DNA of 64,000 nucleotides, from the IMG/VR virus record IMGVR_UViG_3300044655_001017; one strand, written 5' to 3'. The notes under the pieces are model-generated. The model had not been told where the DNA came from and ran no database searches. It saw only the letters and a list, made by a program, of their open reading frames with translations. Both the position numbers and the translations under genes were made by a program. Source of the stretch: a virus (Duplodnaviria; Caudoviricetes). Positions 1,776 through 52,214 of the stretch are shown one piece after another (position 1 is the first letter of the stretch; every line of letters starts with the position of its first letter).

Positions 1776-4700
1776 ATGGCTGAATTTAAATTAGGTAGAA
1801 TACGTTTTATATGGAAAGGTGCGTGGGCATCTTCGACCGCGTATTTAAAAGACGATATCATTAGAAATGGCGGTAAAACATATGTGTGTGTCGTTGGGCA
1901 TACTAGTTCTGCAGATTTTACAACAGATCTTAGTAATGTACCAACTAGATGGAATCAAGTATCTGACGGTACTGCATGGATGTCAGATTGGGCAATTAAC
2001 ACATATTATAGATTAAACGATGTAGTAAAGTATGGAGGTAAATTATATATTTGTACTACAACACACACATCTGCAGCAACTACTGCATTAGGGTTAGATG
2101 CTAATGCTGCTAACTGGGATGTGTATGCTACAGGTTTTAAATGGCAGTCAACTTGGACTACTTCAACAAAATATAGAGTAAACGAAGTAGTAAAATATGG
2201 CGGTATTATATATGTTTGTAATACTAATCATGTTTCAGCTGCAACTGCAACATTAGGGTTAGAAACTAACATTGGTTATTGGGACGTTTATCATAAAGGT
2301 TTTGATTATTTAGGACAATGGAGCGGCAGTTCAGTAAGATATAAAGCCAATGATTTAGTAAATTTTGGTGCAGATGTTTGGATTTGTATAACATACCATA
2401 CATCGAGTGCGTCATTTGTTGAGGCAAATTGGTCAAGATTTATCGAAGGATTAACTTACGAAAATACATGGTCAAGTGCTACTACATACCAACCAGGCGA
2501 CATTGTTGGGTATGGCGGTTACTCATATATCAGCAAAACAATAAACAGCAACGCCACTCCGTCTACAAGCACTACACACTGGGGATTATTTACTACTGGT
2601 TTTAACTTAATCGGTGATTGGGCATCTGCACAATCATATCAAGTTGGTAATGTTATAAGACTTGGCGGTTATACGTATGTTGCGATTTTAGACCATACAT
2701 CAAGCGGTTCAAACACACCACCGAATGCAACATATTGGTCACGATTAAATTCTGGTATTAAATGGGCAAACGTTAATAAATCATATACAGCAGTTGCGGG
2801 AACTAATGTTAGTGGGACAGGTTCATCTGCAACATTTAACGTCTCAACTTCTGGTACATCGTACACAGTTACCGTAAATGCAACCGGTACCGGTTATGCT
2901 GCAACTAACACTATTAAAATCTTAGGAACTGCAGTAGGCGGATTAAGTCCATTTAATGATATTTTAATTACCGTTGCTACTATTTCAGGTAGTGCAATTG
3001 CTACTATTACATCCACTGGTTATGCTGCAACTTGGGCAACTGCAACTGGATATGTTGCAGGCGATTCAATTACAGTTGGTGCAAATTCGTACATCTGTAT
3101 TCTTGCACATACTAGTGCTACTATTAATAGACCAGATAACGATGCATCAGGTACATACTGGAATGTATTATCAGCAGGATCGTCAACATCTGTATTAACA
3201 ACTACTGGTGATATTCCGTATATGAGCCAGTCTGGTCCGGCAAGATTAGGAATCGGTGTAGCTGGCCAAGTATTAAAAGTTTCATCGGCCTTAGTGCCAT
3301 CATGGGGTTATGTTGGTGTTATTGATCAAGTTTATTATGTAAGCCCTGCAGGTACTAATAATCCAGCACCTGATTATGGGGTTACTTTAGATCGCCCATG
3401 GTTAACTGTACGTTATGCAACCGAACAAGTCGAACGAGGTTCTTTAATTCCAAATGGATCGTATTTACTTGCAAGAAATAGAAGTTATATTCAACAGGAG
3501 GTAACTGGGTGGATCGATGCGCAAGTTACTGGTTCAATTGCACCTTATGTTAGTTTTACATACCCTACAAGTAAAGCAAGTTACCAAAGCTATATTGGAT
3601 ATGCAGTAGACGCATTAGTTTATGACTTATCACACGGCGGTAATGCTCGATCTGTTGCATTTGCACAAACCTATTATGCAAATTCTTCAAGAACACAAGA
3701 CGTTGCTACGTTTAATCGTATGGTTACTGTCATTAATGCAGTCATTGCAAATACCGCACCCGGTACTACCTATTCAGCAATTAACCGTATTAGTGATTCT
3801 ACTAGAACATTAGAATCAACTGCTACTACATTAGTAACTAATTTAGTAAAAATTATAACTGATGCATTAACTGCAGGTGTTAATACTAATATCCCGTCGG
3901 TAGTAAATACCAATTATACAATTTTTGTTAAGACTGGAATTTATTATGAAACATTACCTATAATTATTCCAGCTAACACTGCAATTGTAGGTGACGAATT
4001 ACGTTCTTCTAACATCCGACCAAGAAGTACATCTATTCCAACTACTGATACAACTTATAGTTTAGCAGCAGTGACTAGATTGAGTGCTATTATTGCAACG
4101 GTATTAACAAATAGCGCAGTAACGGTGTCATCAGGAAATACAGCAACACAAGTAACTACTCGCCCATCGAGTTCAATTTCGGCAAGTACACTTACTACGT
4201 TATTTACAAATTATAAAGATTATATCAATTTTTATATTAATAGTAGTGGTTCTGCACCTACATTAACTGGTACAGTAGCACCAACTACAGCTCAGGCAAA
4301 TTATGATGCAGTTGAAATACTAGAGGCAAATAAAGAATTTTTAGCGCAAGAGGCAGTTGCATATACTAACGTTACCTACAGCACATCTGTGTCAGCAACT
4401 GCTGCTAATGGTAATATTACAGTTACAAGTTCAACTAACTTTGCAGTTGGAATGCCAGTTGTGTTTAGTGGTACAGTTGGCGCATCAGGTATAGTAGTTG
4501 GAACTGTTTATTATGTTAAGACGTCGGCTGCTAACGTTCTTACTGTTGCAGCAACATCTGGCGGTACTACGTTAACATGGACTGCTGCATCAGGGTTAAC
4601 TGCTACTGTTAAATTATCATATGATTCTACAATGTGTGCTCGTGATGTTAGAGAATTAGTAAATGCTATAAAATATGATTTAGTGTATGTAGGTAACTAC

Positions 4701-46158: not shown

Positions 46159-47012
46159 TGGATTTTAAAGAATTAATGCAAAAAATGCAACAAATTGATG
46201 AAGGGTTAACTATAGACCCTGCAATGGAAGAATGTGATGGAATGCCTGCAGCTATTATTCAAGGTGGACATCCACCTGAAGAATCATTAAACATGAACCT
46301 TACTATTAATAGTAAAGGTGCAGATGGCATTCGTGAATTAATAGATGTATTAAAAGGTATTGGCAGCAACAATGATCCAACTGATGACCAACATGACGAT
46401 AGTGAAATTGTCATTGGCGATAATTATGAGAATTCAGTTGACGATGATGCCGGTCCGCATACATACGGAACTGATGCAGTTATCTTTAAAGGTAACGACA
46501 TGCACAACAAAGGTAGAAAATCACTTAAGGTAAATGGTGGAGAAAATCCACAATTTCACGAATCAATAATTTCTAATCTTTCTGCGTTATACGAAGAAAT
46601 TAAAGGTCGTACTGCATTATCTGAAATGTCTCCTGAAGAAAAACAAGCTGCTCAAGATGCGTTCTTTGCTAAAGGCGGCACTGTAACACATGGAAAAAGT
46701 AAAAGAACTAAAAAAGATCGAATGATAGGTCGCCTTCCTGGAGAACACGAAAGTGGGGTTCTTCATTCTGTTGATGCAAAAGTTCCACCTAGACGTGCAT
46801 CTAGACACGACCATGTTAATGTTGCTAGTAAAAAAGGAGAGATTACACCGGATTGGGAAGACAGATTAAATAGATTAGCAGCAGTTGGTGATGAAGATCG
46901 AGCACGCAAGGCAGCTGAACGTGATGCAAAAGATCGTGAAGATAAAGACAATGAAATGAAATCATTTAAAAAGTTACAACGCCTTAACAGATCATTAGTT
47001 AAAGACTTATAA
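46158..47012 (+). CDS. Hypothetical highly charged protein, possible internal head protein
   Basis: TAATG coupling; MDFKELMQKMQQIDE; acidic N-half and charged C-half. Confidence 0.45.
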   Translation: MDFKELMQKMQQIDEGLTIDPAMEECDGMPAAIIQGGHPPEESLNMNLTINSKGADGIRELIDVLKGIGSNNDPTDDQHDDSEIVIGDNYENSVDDDAGPHTYGTDAVIFKGNDMHNKGRKSLKVNGGENPQFHESIISNLSALYEEIKGRTALSEMSPEEKQAAQDAFFAKGGTVTHGKSKRTKKDRMIGRLPGEHESGVLHSVDAKVPPRRASRHDHVNVASKKGEITPDWEDRLNRLAAVGDEDRARKAAERDAKDREDKDNEMKSFKKLQRLNRSLVKDL

Positions 47013-47033
47013 GTTAACTTAATCATAACTCAT

Positions 47034-47060
47034 AAAGCGGACATATTGTCCGCTTTTTTT
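47034..47060 (+). terminator. Rho-independent terminator
   Basis: AAAGCGGACA-TAT-TGTCCGCTTT followed by a T run. Confidence 0.85.
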
Positions 47061-47091
47061 TGTAAATACATAATACAAAAAAGGATTATAT

Positions 47092-48018
47092 ATGGGTAAA
47101 TCGCTAGACGGTGTCCTTACAAAAAAAGCACACAAGACTGAAAAATTTGATGAGCAACAAATTAATGACATGCTGTTGTGTTCTGATACAGCTAACGGAT
47201 TTTTACATTTTTCAAGAAAATTCTTTCATATCCAACACTCGGTAAAAGGTAAACTATTATTTCAGCCATTTGATTATCAAGTTAATCTGTTAAATTGCTA
47301 TCATGATCATCGTTTTAATATCAATATGTTACCTCGTCAAAGTGGTAAAACAACCTGTGCATCTGCGTACTTGTTATGGTTTGCAATGTTTCATCCAGAT
47401 CAAACTATTCTAATTGCAGCGCACAAATATACTGGTGCTCAAGAGATTATGCAACGTATACGATACGGATACGAACTATGTCCGGACTTCTTACGTGCAG
47501 GGGTAGTAAGTTATAATAAAGGGTCTATGGAGTTTGATAACGGTTCTCGTATTGTAAGTCAAACTACTACTGGTACTACAGGACGAGGTATGTCTATTTC
47601 GTTATTGTATTGCGATGAGTTTGCGTTCTTACAACCTAACATTGCTGAAGAATTTTGGACTTCTATATCACCCACACTAGCAACTGGTGGACGTTGTATT
47701 ATTACATCTACACCAAATAGTGACGAAGATCAATTTGCTACTATATGGAAAGAAAGTCAACAGTTTTTTGACGAGTTTGGCAATGAGAAAGCAGACAAAG
47801 TTGGCATTAACGGTTTTTCTGGATTTAGATCAGATTGGTGGGATCATCCAGATCGTGACGATGCATGGAAACAAGAAGAGCTTGGTCGTATAGGTGAGGA
47901 AAAGTTTAGACGTGAATACGGTTGTATTGTGCATGATTCAGTTGTAACTGTTAAATGGCCATCTGGAAAAATTGAAAAACTAACAATGGGCGATATTATG
48001 CGATTATTAAGTTCATAG
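47092..48018 (+). CDS. gp17: Terminase large subunit, N-terminal ATPase part (277 aa) plus N-half of split intein (31 aa)
   Basis: Walker A LPRQSGKT, GRGMS, Walker B LLYCDEFAF, ITSTPN; then FRREYG followed by CIVHDSVV (intein block A) and an early stop. Confidence 0.95.
   Translation: MGKSLDGVLTKKAHKTEKFDEQQINDMLLCSDTANGFLHFSRKFFHIQHSVKGKLLFQPFDYQVNLLNCYHDHRFNINMLPRQSGKTTCASAYLLWFAMFHPDQTILIAAHKYTGAQEIMQRIRYGYELCPDFLRAGVVSYNKGSMEFDNGSRIVSQTTTGTTGRGMSISLLYCDEFAFLQPNIAEEFWTSISPTLATGGRCIITSTPNSDEDQFATIWKESQQFFDEFGNEKADKVGINGFSGFRSDWWDHPDRDDAWKQEELGRIGEEKFRREYGCIVHDSVVTVKWPSGKIEKLTMGDIMRLLSS
47923..48015 (+). mobile_element. Split intein N-fragment (IntN, 31 aa)
   Basis: CIVHDSVVTVKWPSGKIEKLTMGDIMRLLSS: Cys1 and block A pattern. 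Confidence 0.88.
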
Positions 48019-48031
48019 TATATGACGAAAT

Positions 48032-48039
48032 GATAAATA
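48032..48039 (+). promoter_or_regulatory. Late promoter GATAAATA of the homing endonuclease
   Basis: Lies 5 nt before ATG 48045, the same geometry as at 43129 and 49898. Confidence 0.55.
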
Positions 48040-48044
48040 CTAGC

Positions 48045-48824
48045 ATGTATTATGTATATATTTATAAAACCCCAATTAACATCACAGTAAGTTATATGAG
48101 TATTTTAGCAAATCAACCTTTTTATATTGGGAAGGGCCACGGTAGGCGATATAAAGATCATTTATCAGAAACTGCAGAAACTACGTGTAATCATTTAAAA
48201 GTTGCGGTAATTTCTAGATTAGTCGCGCAAAATCTAACTCCAGTTATAGAAATGTATCAAACTGAGTTAACAGATGCTGCAGCAAAGGCTCTTGAAATTG
48301 ATCTGATTAACCAGTACGGCCGATTAATTGATCATGCCGGCCCGTTAACAAATAAAACACTAGGCGGAGATGGGTGTACTGGATTTAAACATACTGAAGA
48401 AACCAAACAATTAATGAGTATTCAGAGAAAAGGAACCATTCCATATAATAAAGGTATCGCTCGTCCAGGAATTGGTGGACGTACATTAGGTACTAAATGG
48501 TCTGAATCTGAAAGAGAAACTCAACTGTTAGTTAGAAGCCAACCAGGTTATTATGAGTTTAACAAATGTCCTATAAGAGCAAAAAAAATAAGTGACTCCA
48601 AAAAAGGAAAACCTGGATCAGCAAAAGACAAACAATGGTTTAATAATGGAGTTATTGAGACCTATAAAGATATATGCCCTGACGGATTTGTTAAGGGAAG
48701 ACTTCCTAGATTACAAATATCAAAGAGAGGCATGTGTTGGTATAATAATGGAGTAATTAACAAACAATTTAAAGAAGGAACAGAACTTGATGGATTTACA
48801 CGCGGAAGAATTAATAAAAAATAA
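48045..48824 (+). mobile_element. Free-standing GIY-YIG homing endonuclease inserted in the split intein
   Basis: YYVYIY...FYIGKG.G.R...H, E..LI..YG, N.T.GGDG, NUMOD3-like HTEETKQLMS, two W(F/Y)NNG...GF..GR repeats. Confidence 0.9.
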
Positions 48825-49899
48825 GTTAGGATTAACGGTGCTAACTGACACCGGCTGGAGCAAGTTTGACGGAATCTTAGTTAAAGGTGTTAAAAAGATA
48901 CTTCATGTAACTACACAACGTCATTCACTTAAAAGCACTCCTGATCATAAATATTTTCTTAATGGGTTTAAACCGATAGAAGGTAGATTATTATTGCCTA
49001 AACAAAAAATTTTAGTTAATGGCAAACTTGATAATGTCGTGTCTGTTAAGTGGCTGTTAGATGAAGAACCAGTATACGATCTGTTTAATGTTGAACAGAA
49101 TCACAGGTATTATGCAAATAACGTTCTAATCAAAAATTGCGAATTTTTAGTATACGACGAAACTCTTATTAACAGTTTAAAATTAGTAGAGTTATACGGT
49201 AAAGAACCACTAATGAAAATGGGGCAAGTGCGATGGTATAAAAAACCAACTGCAGGTAATTTATATTTAATTGCGTTAGATCCTAGTTTAGGAACAGGTG
49301 GGGACTATTCGGCAATATCAGTATTTGAATTACCATCAATGGTGCAAGTTGCAGAATGGCATCATAACATTACTCCTATACAAGGACAGGTAAAGTTATT
49401 TAGAGATATATTATTATATATACAAGATGAAATTGGATCAGATCAGTATAATTCAATATATTGGTCAGTAGAAAATAATACAGTAGGTGAGAGCGCATTA
49501 GTAGTAATTGACAATTTAGGAGAAGAAACATTTCCGGGATTATTTGTAAGTGAACCGGGCAGAAAGGGGCATGTTCGTAAGTTTCGCAAAGGATTTAACA
49601 CAACTTTTAATAATAAAATAGCTGCATGTTCAAAATTAAAATATTTTGTTGAAGAAGATAAAATGGTTATTAATAGTAAACCATTAATAACTGAATTAAA
49701 ATCTTTTATTGCACATGGCATTAGTTTTAAAGGTAAACCGGGCCAGCATGATGATTTAGTAGCAGCATTATTACTAATAGTAAGAATGATTGATATACTA
49801 GCAGAATGGGATCCGTTAGTGTTTGAAAAAATGCGGATTGAAGATCGAATTGAGGACTGGGAAGCACCTCTACCAATATTTGTTTCCTCTAATATGTGA
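48790..49899 (+). CDS. gp17: C-half of split intein (116 aa) fused to terminase large subunit nuclease domain (253 aa)
   Basis: Block B STPDH; blocks F/G VYDLFNVEQNHRYYANNVLIKN followed by CEF; RNase H-like LIALDPSLGTGGDYSA, VENN.VG, HDDLV; AGGA RBS inside the endonuclease gene. Confidence 0.93.
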   Translation: MDLHAEELIKNKLGLTVLTDTGWSKFDGILVKGVKKILHVTTQRHSLKSTPDHKYFLNGFKPIEGRLLLPKQKILVNGKLDNVVSVKWLLDEEPVYDLFNVEQNHRYYANNVLIKNCEFLVYDETLINSLKLVELYGKEPLMKMGQVRWYKKPTAGNLYLIALDPSLGTGGDYSAISVFELPSMVQVAEWHHNITPIQGQVKLFRDILLYIQDEIGSDQYNSIYWSVENNTVGESALVVIDNLGEETFPGLFVSEPGRKGHVRKFRKGFNTTFNNKIAACSKLKYFVEEDKMVINSKPLITELKSFIAHGISFKGKPGQHDDLVAALLLIVRMIDILAEWDPLVFEKMRIEDRIEDWEAPLPIFVSSNM

Positions 49900-49910
49900 T
49901 AAATATAAAC

Positions 49911-52214
49911 ATGGACAATAATTTAGATAAAATCGCTTTAGACCTTTATGGTAAAATAGAAACACGTTTCTCAGATATTAAAATGGGTGACGAAAACGCA
50001 GAAGTATTAAGTAAAAAAGTTGACATCCCAAGAGCTCGATTTTTTGAGTTTGAATATACAGAAGACGGCGAACCACTTGGAACTATTACTATTACTTTAG
50101 ATAAAGATGACGGAGTTGTGTTGCAAGTTAGTGGAGATTTAGTAGATGATGATTCAAATACTACAAACCGCAGCGCATACAAATTTATAAGATCATTTAG
50201 AAAATTTGCTAAAAATCGCTTATTAAATTTTGATGTTCAAAACATTGGAAAGAGTAATTTAGACAAACGAGACTATCAGTTTCAAGCAAAACCCAAGGAA
50301 CAAACAATGATGGAAAGTAAAATGTTTGGTACTTCTAGAATAAGTTACCAAGACTTAGGTGAGGCTCGTTTAATAGTTAAACATACTCAACCTATTAATC
50401 CGGAGTTAGCCGCAGGACGCACTATGCATATTGAGTGTATATACATTGAAAATGCAGAAGGCGAAAGATTTAAATACCCTTATAAACATTTACCCGGCGC
50501 TCGTGCATTAGCAGAACATATTAAACACGGTGGAATTCCGTACGATGACATTGGTAAACACATTACTAAACTTAGTGAAGAATTAGCAAGTTTGCGTAAA
50601 TTTAAAGGCTACGTTAGTCGTCAGTCACAGATATCAGAAGCAATGGGAGATGTTACATCTCGTGTAATTGAACGCATTGAATCAGTTAAAAAAGAAATCA
50701 TTAGCTTACAACGTCCTGCATATTATCAACAATTTGCAGAATCATTTACTGCAAAAGAAGATCGTGCAATTCCAGAAACTATAATGAATGACTGGATTGA
50801 TCGATTGACAGTGCGCACATTTAATGAAGAAATGAAAACAGTATTTCCGTTCTTGTATAATATTATAGACGAAAGCGAATTACCAGTGTGTGAATTATCG
50901 TCAGATTACTTCTTAGATGAAAAAGCACCTAAAGGTTGGGAAGGTACTGTTAAAGCAATGAAGAAACACAAGGAAATAGATAATCCTTGGGCATTAGCAC
51001 ACTCAATGAAAAACAAAGGGTATAAAAGCCATAAGACAGAAACCTTTGATCCGGAGATTGCCTTTGAATCGTTTATTAATCGCATTATGCTTGAAGATAA
51101 AGATGAATTGTTTAGTCCAAATAAAGATGCACAAAAAGTTGCTATTGACAAATTAAATAAAATTTTAGAAAAAGAATTACGTGGCGGACCAGATGGTATT
51201 AATGCTATTGATAGCTTATCTGGGTTAATTGACGATACTGAATTTTTAGATTCATTAAAAGATATTGATCCTGATTTAGATGTACGTCCGTTAATTCAAC
51301 AATACGTAACACAAGTTGATCCGAGTATTGCCATCCAATTAAAATTTGGCGACGGCGAAGTAGGCGGACAAGATTTAGCACCTGCAGCTGATGGTGCAAC
51401 TGCACCTAGCAGCGCACCTGCACCAGGCGGCGAAGCTCCTCCAGACTTAGGTGGCGGAATGGGCGGCGGAATGGGCGGCGGAATGGGCGGCGGAATGCCT
51501 CCAGACTTAGGTGGTATGCCTCCGGAAGGTGAAGTTCCTCCAGAAGGTGAAGTTCCTCCAGAAGGCGCCCCTGCTCCGGAAGGTGAAGTTCCTCCAGCGC
51601 CAGGTACAGAACCTCCTGCACCTCCAGTAGCAGAAGGTATTAATCATAAAAAATCCAAAATTAAAGCTAAGTTTATTAAAGCAAAGGCTGCTGGCGCTAC
51701 ATTAGAAACAATGTTTGCAGAAGGTATGACTATTCGCGATGCACTTAGAGAAAGTGGATTAACTCCGTGCGAAGCCGGTTTTGGCGAATGTGAAATGGAG
51801 GACGACGATGGTAGTGCACCAGACGAAGAAAATATTTCCGGTAAAGAACAGATTTTAAATTCAATTGAAGGATTTTGGAATAAAGAAGAACGTAACTTTA
51901 CTATTGGCGGACAACAGGTTAAGAATAAGATTATTAAACGATTCAAAGACGGAGAATATAGTAATGCGTCAGAAGAAGATGTTAAGGAAATTTTACAAAA
52001 AGTTGATCAGCTAGATCCAAGCGAAGATGCTAGAGAACAAAATGATGTTTTACGATTAGCAGGAGTAAGTCATCAAAATTTAGATACTGATCAAATAGAC
52101 ATGGAAGGATTTGGTGGTAGACGTTTTGATAGTATTGACAAACAAAAAATGCGTAAAACAATGAGGAATAATCATGAAACAAATTTTAAAAATCGATTCA
52201 ATAAATTCCGTTAA
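49911..52214 (+). CDS. Large hypothetical protein with Pro/Gly/Met low-complexity linker; possible internal virion protein
   Basis: Long ORF, GATAAATA 5 nt upstream; GGMG and PEGEVP repeats. Confidence 0.6.
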   Translation: MDNNLDKIALDLYGKIETRFSDIKMGDENAEVLSKKVDIPRARFFEFEYTEDGEPLGTITITLDKDDGVVLQVSGDLVDDDSNTTNRSAYKFIRSFRKFAKNRLLNFDVQNIGKSNLDKRDYQFQAKPKEQTMMESKMFGTSRISYQDLGEARLIVKHTQPINPELAAGRTMHIECIYIENAEGERFKYPYKHLPGARALAEHIKHGGIPYDDIGKHITKLSEELASLRKFKGYVSRQSQISEAMGDVTSRVIERIESVKKEIISLQRPAYYQQFAESFTAKEDRAIPETIMNDWIDRLTVRTFNEEMKTVFPFLYNIIDESELPVCELSSDYFLDEKAPKGWEGTVKAMKKHKEIDNPWALAHSMKNKGYKSHKTETFDPEIAFESFINRIMLEDKDELFSPNKDAQKVAIDKLNKILEKELRGGPDGINAIDSLSGLIDDTEFLDSLKDIDPDLDVRPLIQQYVTQVDPSIAIQLKFGDGEVGGQDLAPAADGATAPSSAPAPGGEAPPDLGGGMGGGMGGGMGGGMPPDLGGMPPEGEVPPEGEVPPEGAPAPEGEVPPAPGTEPPAPPVAEGINHKKSKIKAKFIKAKAAGATLETMFAEGMTIRDALRESGLTPCEAGFGECEMEDDDGSAPDEENISGKEQILNSIEGFWNKEERNFTIGGQQVKNKIIKRFKDGEYSNASEEDVKEILQKVDQLDPSEDAREQNDVLRLAGVSHQNLDTDQIDMEGFGGRRFDSIDKQKMRKTMRNNHETNFKNRFNKFR
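51438..51600 (+). repeat. Nested tandem repeats: GGCGGCGGAATG (GGMG) run flanked by two CCTCCAGACTTAGGTGG, then three 18-bp PEGEVP units
   Basis: Direct inspection. Confidence 0.85.

Follow-up and report, generated by a model that had tools for sequence, protein, structure and literature searches.

The kind of locus described here is already known from metagenomes. Dassa et al. (2009; PMC2677866) described 'fractured genes'. One of these encodes a gp17-like terminase, from Lake Gatun, with an intein in which the break lies at an unusual point, the 122-amino-acid (aa) C-terminal part lacking only motif N1. Natural atypically split inteins are few (AceL-TerL, GOS-TerL, VidaL and PolB16), and those of AceL-TerL and GOS-TerL are broken at the S2 position, after the first helix (PMC13014065). 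Trans-splicing has been shown for GOS-TerL, AceL-TerL and the consensus intein Cat (reviewed in PMC11766414). Here we add a further member, found at positions 47,092-49,899 of a 64,000-nucleotide stretch of viral DNA (Duplodnaviria; Caudoviricetes; IMG/VR record IMGVR_UViG_3300044655_001017) that we refer to as the window. The gene for the large terminase subunit, TerL, is interrupted there by a 1215-nt cassette (47,923-49,137; all features discussed lie on the plus strand) composed of the N-terminal piece of an intein (IntN), an endonuclease gene and the C-terminal piece of the intein (IntC). Very probably, this is the TerL of a lake jumbo phage fractured by a split intein together with a free-standing GIY-YIG/NUMOD3 endonuclease.

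The layout is that of a fractured gene, with adjacent, co-oriented halves that carry intein pieces and a free-standing endonuclease open reading frame (ORF) between them. The original prediction had appealed to fractured phage genes with intervening endonucleases as an established class, and the 2009 paper (PMC2677866) does describe them. GOS-TerL resembles the window in being a myovirus gp17-type terminase in two genes with a split intein at an unusual point and in belonging to the class with a free-standing endonuclease gene between the halves; its intein has Ser1 (PMC11766414), however, where that of the window has Cys1. VidaL is likewise naturally atypically split, and cysteine-dependent, but its break comes earlier, after strand 2 (S1), and leaves a 16-aa IntN (PMC13014065), whereas the window intein is broken after helix 1. 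At 31 aa for IntN and 116 aa for IntC, the window fits the sizes seen in the atypically split TerL class (25-37 and 104-122 aa). AceL-TerL and Cat, which are reportedly the subjects of work by Thiel et al. in 2014 and Stevens et al. in 2018, share with the window a TerL host, Cys1 and Cys+1, a C-extein starting with CE and a break after the first helix, which leaves them an IntN of 25-30 aa and an IntC of 104 aa. They differ from it in having a penultimate His in place of Lys.

For sequence comparison we used the Cat consensus chain (PDB 6DSL) in place of the native AceL-TerL and GOS-TerL sequences. CatC (6DSL_B), which like the window IntC precedes Cys-Glu, is the best PDB sequence match of that IntC, but only with an E-value of 0.04 and 17 bits; gp41-1 and DnaX inteins are also weak matches. 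Within the same phage group, a second intein lineage occupies this site too (P0060 and P0079, contiguous, and P0034, split; each with SSN and then CEF), sitting exactly before CEFLVYDETL. One of its members, P0060, matches CatC at E 1.1e-10, so the AceL and GOS inteins belong to that lineage. The window intein is 26-32% identical to this Cat-like lineage and, judged by these alignments, appears to be a diverged sister of the AceL/GOS lineage with the same break point. Of the original assignment to the AceL-TerL type, the TerL insertion site (compared on its C-extein side), the break, the piece sizes, Cys1/Cys+1 and the CE start of the C-extein all stand. Close kinship does not, the match to the Cat consensus being weak. 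A literature search found no paper describing the lineage of the window intein.

The two halves of the terminase and of its intein

The upstream ORF (TerL-N; 47,092-48,018) encodes 308 aa, the first 277 of which form the N-extein with the ATPase domain (47,092-47,922), ending FRREYG. Pfam Terminase_6N matches TerL-N residues 79-281 (E 2.5e-18), and the N-extein aligns with the N-terminal part of TerL from Pseudomonas phage PA5oct, as far as the REH junction there, as well as with residues 1-278 of the uninterrupted relative P0013. Immediately after REYG, the Cys1 codon (47,923-47,925) opens IntN (47,923-48,018), which reads CIVHDSVVTVKWPSGKIEKLTMGDIMRLLSS and consists of 31 codons, covering Cys1, strands 1-2 and helix 1, and a TAG stop (48,016-48,018). 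The endonuclease ORF (48,030-48,824) is read in a frame other than that of TerL, and its last 35 nt also belong to the IntC gene. The downstream ORF (IntC-TerL-C) runs from the ATG at 48,790 (alternatively TTG at 48,787) to 49,899 and encodes 369 aa from the ATG; an AAGGA ribosome-binding site, read from the sequence within the 3' end of the endonuclease ORF (48,775-48,779), sits 10 nt ahead of it. Counted from this ATG, IntC is 116 aa long (48,790-49,137) and contains STPDH (block B, T50 and H53), VYDLFNVEQNH (block F, D97 and H105) and VLIKN (block G, ending in N116). Then comes CEFLVY, the start of the 253-aa C-extein (49,138-49,899), which begins Cys+1-Glu-Phe and matches the nuclease (RNaseH-like) domain structures of T4 gp17 and RB49 (E 1e-10 to 1e-14). 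TerL-N with its REYG end and 31-aa IntN, the separate gene for IntC and the nuclease domain, and the GIY-YIG gene between the halves are all where the original prediction had put them.

Between 46,800 and 50,200 the only intrinsic-terminator-like hairpin recovered by a terminator search is 5' of TerL-N (47,034-47,056), so no terminator separates the three co-oriented ORFs. TerL-N and IntC-TerL-C share one frame in the window, though not in a related allele (L087, below), and we considered read-through or recoding of TerL; it is excluded, for the TerL frame contains 23 stops within the gap.

Removal of the cassette leaves joined exteins of exactly 530 aa, in agreement with the roughly 530 aa first estimated, with REYG-CEF at the junction. 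These align without gaps both to the intein-less TerL of PA5oct (531 aa; junction REH-EVEF) and to 530-aa metagenomic TerLs, and most of the close metagenomic relatives are uninterrupted TerLs of 528-534 aa. P0014 (530 aa, 92-93% identical) reads ...FRREYGCEFLVYDETLINSLKLVE... across the site, that is, REYG-CEFLVY, the predicted spliced product; in P0013 (530 aa, from a 358-kb contig) the junction is REYG-LEF. Matches found by tblastn to the contiguous TerLs of cultured jumbo phages start precisely at Cys+1. In an alignment with T4 gp17, query residue 126 stands opposite residue 362 of the 577-residue chain. The insertion site, by extrapolation about 8 residues before the aligned point, would fall in the ATPase/nuclease hinge, given what we take to be the domain boundary.

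IntN and IntC are one intein domain, a class-1 mini-intein, with Cys1, Thr-x-x-His in block B, Asp and His in block F, and Asn followed by Cys+1 in block G. Cys1 is kept in all IntN tails seen. In an alignment of 76 cluster representatives of IntC-TerL-C, whose identity to the window IntC has a median of 57% and a minimum of 26%, conservation is 100% for T50, 97% for H53, 97% for D97, 95% for H105, 97% for N116 and 100% for Cys+1. TerL-N pieces whose exteins share 79-94% identity end in IntN tails that are the same or almost the same. A PDB sequence search with IntN alone returned nothing useful, and in one alignment (A2) MAFFT matched the short tails to the C-terminal intein half; the folding alignment (A3) does not include them.

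A contiguous version of the domain is found in P0068 (contig L092, 2185 bp), a TerL with a 146-aa mini-intein at the same site that reads CISKDSIVTLRWPSGKIQKVTISALEKLL-ILTIEKTD-ELLKNNLGLEILTDSGWSKFDG...ILAKN, then CEF. After Cys1 it starts ISKDSIVTLRWPSGKIQKV..EKLL, which a linker joins to ELLKNNLGLEILTDSGWSKFDG. It is collinear with both window pieces, IntN corresponding to about residues 1-29 (strand-strand-helix) and IntC, to which it is 55% identical, to about residues 38-146. An AlphaFold2 model of residues 154-299 of P0068, which is to say of this homologue and not of the joined window pieces, has a HINT fold with a predicted local distance difference test (pLDDT) score of 94.5. At E ≤ 0.001 the model has 64 PDB matches. 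The top 50 that were listed come from inteins or from HINT domains of the bacterial intein-like (BIL) kind, headed by the VidaL intein (PDB 6VGV; template modelling score 0.85, root-mean-square deviation 1.8 Å, 26% identity). Its sole weak stretch is residues 31-40, right after helix 22-30, and it is to this linker, after helix 1, that the break in the window intein maps in the model. An in-frame stretch upstream of the IntC ATG in the window (LTNNLKKEQNL) bears a resemblance to the linker of the contiguous allele that is too weak to interpret. Another relative, P0019 (381 aa, with an IntC of 129 aa), has an N-terminally longer IntC, MELTTDNLKKILNQKDTSVEELLK..., with an apparent helix-1-like segment, which suggests that the break lies further upstream or that this IntC and its partner IntN overlap.

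Endonuclease gene, natural alleles and spread of the cassette

The product of the gap gene is 264 aa long from 48,030, or 259 aa if translation starts at the ATG at 48,045. NUMOD3 is found above the Pfam cut-off (E 4e-6) and LEM-3_GIY-YIG below it (E 1.8e-4, 22 bits against a 27-bit cut-off); there is a further match to phrog_314, 'homing endonuclease', and a PDB sequence search with the protein gave no match. YVY, FYIGKG, R35, H39 and N103 are nearly invariant in an alignment (A4) that includes two intron endonucleases annotated with PF01541, and the Glu of LEIDLI is opposite Glu in most of the rows that cover this position. These Pfam, PHROGs and motif data uphold the GIY-YIG assignment, and the ratio of nonsynonymous to synonymous substitution rates (dN/dS) is 0.18 in comparison with the allele L005. 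In its N-terminal GIY-YIG motifs, its C-terminal NUMOD3 repeats and its position beside the presumed target, the gene is like the free-standing phage GIY-YIG endonucleases discussed by Dassa et al. (2009; PMC2677866). It differs from that class in its sub-cut-off Pfam GIY-YIG score and in the HNH domain that diverged alleles bear on the same C-terminal half.

The TerL site is polymorphic for the presence or absence of the cassette. It is empty in L016-L018, P0014, P0013 and one allele in sequencing run X15, is occupied by the contiguous mini-intein in P0068/L092, and is split with a GIY-YIG gene in the window, L005, L007-L012 and L025. An HNH gene takes the place of the GIY-YIG gene in L006 (3325-4023) and L022 (~3330-4029), and the proteins P0249 and P0262 are of this HNH type as well. 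The C-terminal NUMOD3 half of this HNH-type gene is 51-58% identical to that of the window, and the two types look like a swap of nuclease domains on a shared DNA-binding module with one target site.

Five contigs of up to 155 kb, from five samples, have the split without an endonuclease, TerL-N and IntC-TerL-C being 68 nt apart. In L087 the gap reads TAG-TA, then AGCGAGGCATGTATTGGTATAATAACGGAGTAATTAATAAACAATTTAAAGAAGGAACAGAACTTG-ATG, and corresponds to the final ~60 nt of the endonuclease ORF, in which the ribosome-binding site lies. Because the end of that ORF is retained, the allele must have arisen by a deletion of ~703 bp (window ~48,021-48,723), and the split TerL therefore works without the endonuclease. 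Compared with L087, dN/dS is 0.054 for IntN and IntC together at a dS of 0.60 (Nei-Gojobori), as low as for the exteins (0.08-0.11). The intein halves of this allele are under purifying selection, and no other observation argues as well for a dependence of the phage on its split intein.

The cassette has also spread laterally, and recently. Over its 1215 nt the window is 99.4-100% identical to L007-L012 and L025, but in comparison with L007-L012 the N-extein is only 87-94%, the C-extein 89-93% and the neighbouring genes 77-87% identical; a nearly identical cassette in terminase DNA that differs to this extent points to recent movement. The near-identical tract runs from ~47,865 to 49,146 against L011 and from ~47,899 to 49,171 against L012, starting ~25-60 nt before the N-terminal border and ending ~10-35 nt past the C-terminal one. 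The close relatives L016-L018 are empty, and their site is nearly unchanged (...CGTGAATACGGC/TGCGAATTC..., with the insertion point between). On sequence comparison, this pattern of cassette and flanks is the footprint that would be expected if the cassette had recently homed, in its entirety, into alleles free of the intein.

Alternative explanations and significance

We propose the following mechanism. A selfish cassette of 1215 nt occupies the ATPase/nuclease hinge of a T4-gp17-type TerL, and in it the gene of a class-1 mini-intein is interrupted, just behind the first helix, by an endonuclease gene that is free-standing. Two polypeptides (277 aa plus the 31-aa IntN, and the 116-aa IntC plus 253 aa) would associate, with the short strand-strand-helix of IntN docking into the nearly complete IntC. 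The reconstituted HINT domain would then carry out an N-S acyl shift at Cys1, trans-thioesterification to Cys+1 and cyclisation of Asn116, releasing the 530-aa TerL with its REYG-CEF junction that would be required for DNA packaging. The endonuclease may meanwhile cut the intein-free TerL alleles of co-infecting relatives, repair would copy the whole cassette into the cut alleles, and the intein would render the insertion harmless. Trans-splicing, the dependence of packaging on splicing and the target of the endonuclease are what we infer here. The 530-aa empty alleles, the contiguous allele, the endonuclease-deleted allele (dN/dS 0.05) and the conserved catalytic residues strongly support a functional split intein on which the phage would depend.

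Several points weigh against this account. Splicing of the window intein is a prediction, and both the target and the activity of the endonuclease are putative. The penultimate residue of block G is Lys in the window and Lys (62) or Ser (14), never His, in the relatives; a penultimate His is frequent though not universal among active inteins. Similarity to the biochemically characterised relatives (Cat, AceL and GOS) is weak. Searches of the window and of two partial related records gave only one TerL, which leaves some chance of a second terminase elsewhere in the ~355-kb genome. Finally, a metatranscriptome run yielded three identical 151-nt contigs (TerL-N, IntC), too little for a claim of expression, and these could be carry-over of DNA.

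Some of these points would suit a different explanation, in which the intein halves do not splice but form a non-covalent clamp that holds together a two-subunit terminase, much as split NrdA of phage Aeh1, from literature cited by Dassa et al. (2009; PMC2677866), provides a non-covalent two-subunit precedent. A clamp would be compatible with the absence of the penultimate His throughout the lineage and with a break that falls at a domain hinge, since the domains on either side might cooperate even when separate. It would, however, need none of Cys1, the block B Thr and His, the block F Asp and His, the terminal Asn and Cys+1, which are 95-100% conserved over deep divergence. The contiguous P0068, moreover, must cis-splice to give a TerL of normal length, and the related AceL-TerL and GOS-TerL are reported to trans-splice (PMC11766414), so that we regard a clamp as improbable. 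It is highly improbable that TerL is simply a dead gene, disrupted by insertion of an endonuclease in a defective or decaying phage genome. Stops and a foreign ORF do interrupt it, but the same arrangement recurs in ~20 runs of different studies and in many IMG/VR contigs, the exteins and intein halves are under strong purifying selection (dN/dS 0.02-0.11), and there are no frameshifts or stops within any piece.

There is next to no chance that the interruption is an assembly error, or that a group I intron with the GIY-YIG gene inside it removes the interruption from the RNA. Most of the stretch is contained in ~20 public lake-water runs, and contigs from three of them span both junctions (at 48,018 and 48,790) without indels: 47,674-49,146 in X5 (1 difference), 47,719-49,146 in X18 (5 differences) and, from another year and study, 47,892-49,178 in X15 (4 differences). 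These independent contigs mean that the stops are not assembly errors. As for an intron, GIY-YIG genes are common in phage group I introns, but an Rfam scan of 46,500-50,500 at E ≤ 1 gave three chance-level matches only and no group I or other intron family, and on either side of the endonuclease gene the sequence encodes conserved intein motifs in frame. A cassette-free form does exist, since a second contig from X15 joins 47,925 to 49,141 and skips the 1215 nt, but it is the DNA of another, empty allele in the same sample and not an RNA product.

Taking the split intein with its endonuclease cassette as the preferred explanation, the locus brings to the TerL hinge site a further intein lineage, diverged and with many members. 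Its natural alleles capture several states of the 'gene-breaking' model of Dassa and co-workers at one site, with population evidence of recent homing, and abundant lake jumbo phages routinely encode their essential packaging motor in pieces. Knowledge of how such elements work is unchanged. We consider it possible, though short of probable, that the window intein founds a lineage of its own, abundant in fresh water, of TerL inteins that are atypically split, distant from AceL/GOS and equipped with a penultimate Lys or Ser and that, in addition, the allele series records the stepwise breaking of an intein and loss of the endonuclease. If so, the series (empty, contiguous, GIY-YIG, HNH, nuclease deleted) would document, in living populations, an endonuclease that breaks an intein non-canonically and is later lost, leaving an obligate split intein behind. 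Atypically split inteins are valued because their short half can be made synthetically, and a biotechnological value of the window intein is plausible, although its 31-aa IntN is no shorter than known ones and its penultimate residue is Lys, not His. If a synthetic 31-mer supported fast splicing, the intein would provide a new orthogonal tool for labelling.

Neighbouring sequence and other possible split terminases

The gene that follows TerL (49,911-52,214) encodes a virion structural protein according to PHROGs and has a low-complexity stretch, GGGMGGGMGGGMGGGM, followed by repeated PPEGEV units. The octamer GATAAATA occurs at 48,032-48,039 and at 49,898-49,905, in each case 5 nt before an ATG (48,045 of the endonuclease and 49,911 of this structural gene). 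We considered it as a 'late promoter' of the endonuclease and rejected it, the octamer not being enriched in the window (7 found against 5.8 expected).

Long-IntC or contiguous inteins are also present at other TerL sites in relatives, namely the P-loop (GKT/T) and Walker B (LLY/CDEF); the loci concerned are P0012/L019, those of P0075, P0060 and P0126, and the P0003 locus. In Salicola phage SCTP-2, gene 224 (L002:2786-4870) encodes a 694-aa TerL with an IntC-like start, ...NGGNVSQ, before CDEFAFV (Walker B), and contains a second, large contiguous intein (YPTIS/CLAPGT...GILGSN/TGGK). The 'hypothetical' gene 225 upstream (L002:1677-2702) has HNH-like motifs, and the N-terminal TerL piece is not adjacent. 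Agrobacterium phage Atu_ph07 (L003:1095-3286) has adjacent genes, gp110 and gp109, that are both annotated 'terminase large subunit'. The first ends ...GRQLGK, then SVHKSTDITYNDKQVKIKSLI...LVR and a stop, and the second opens with an IntC-like piece of ~140 aa ending ...FYTNGILSHN, then TTVAAAYLL; together they have the look of an atypically split intein that the annotation missed, placed at the P-loop of a cultured jumbo phage and using Ser1 and Thr+1. Lastly, among the relatives of the window phage, one 20-kb contig carries TerL-related ORFs of 208, 311, 245 and 369 aa, a pattern suggestive of a terminase made in three pieces and containing two split inteins.

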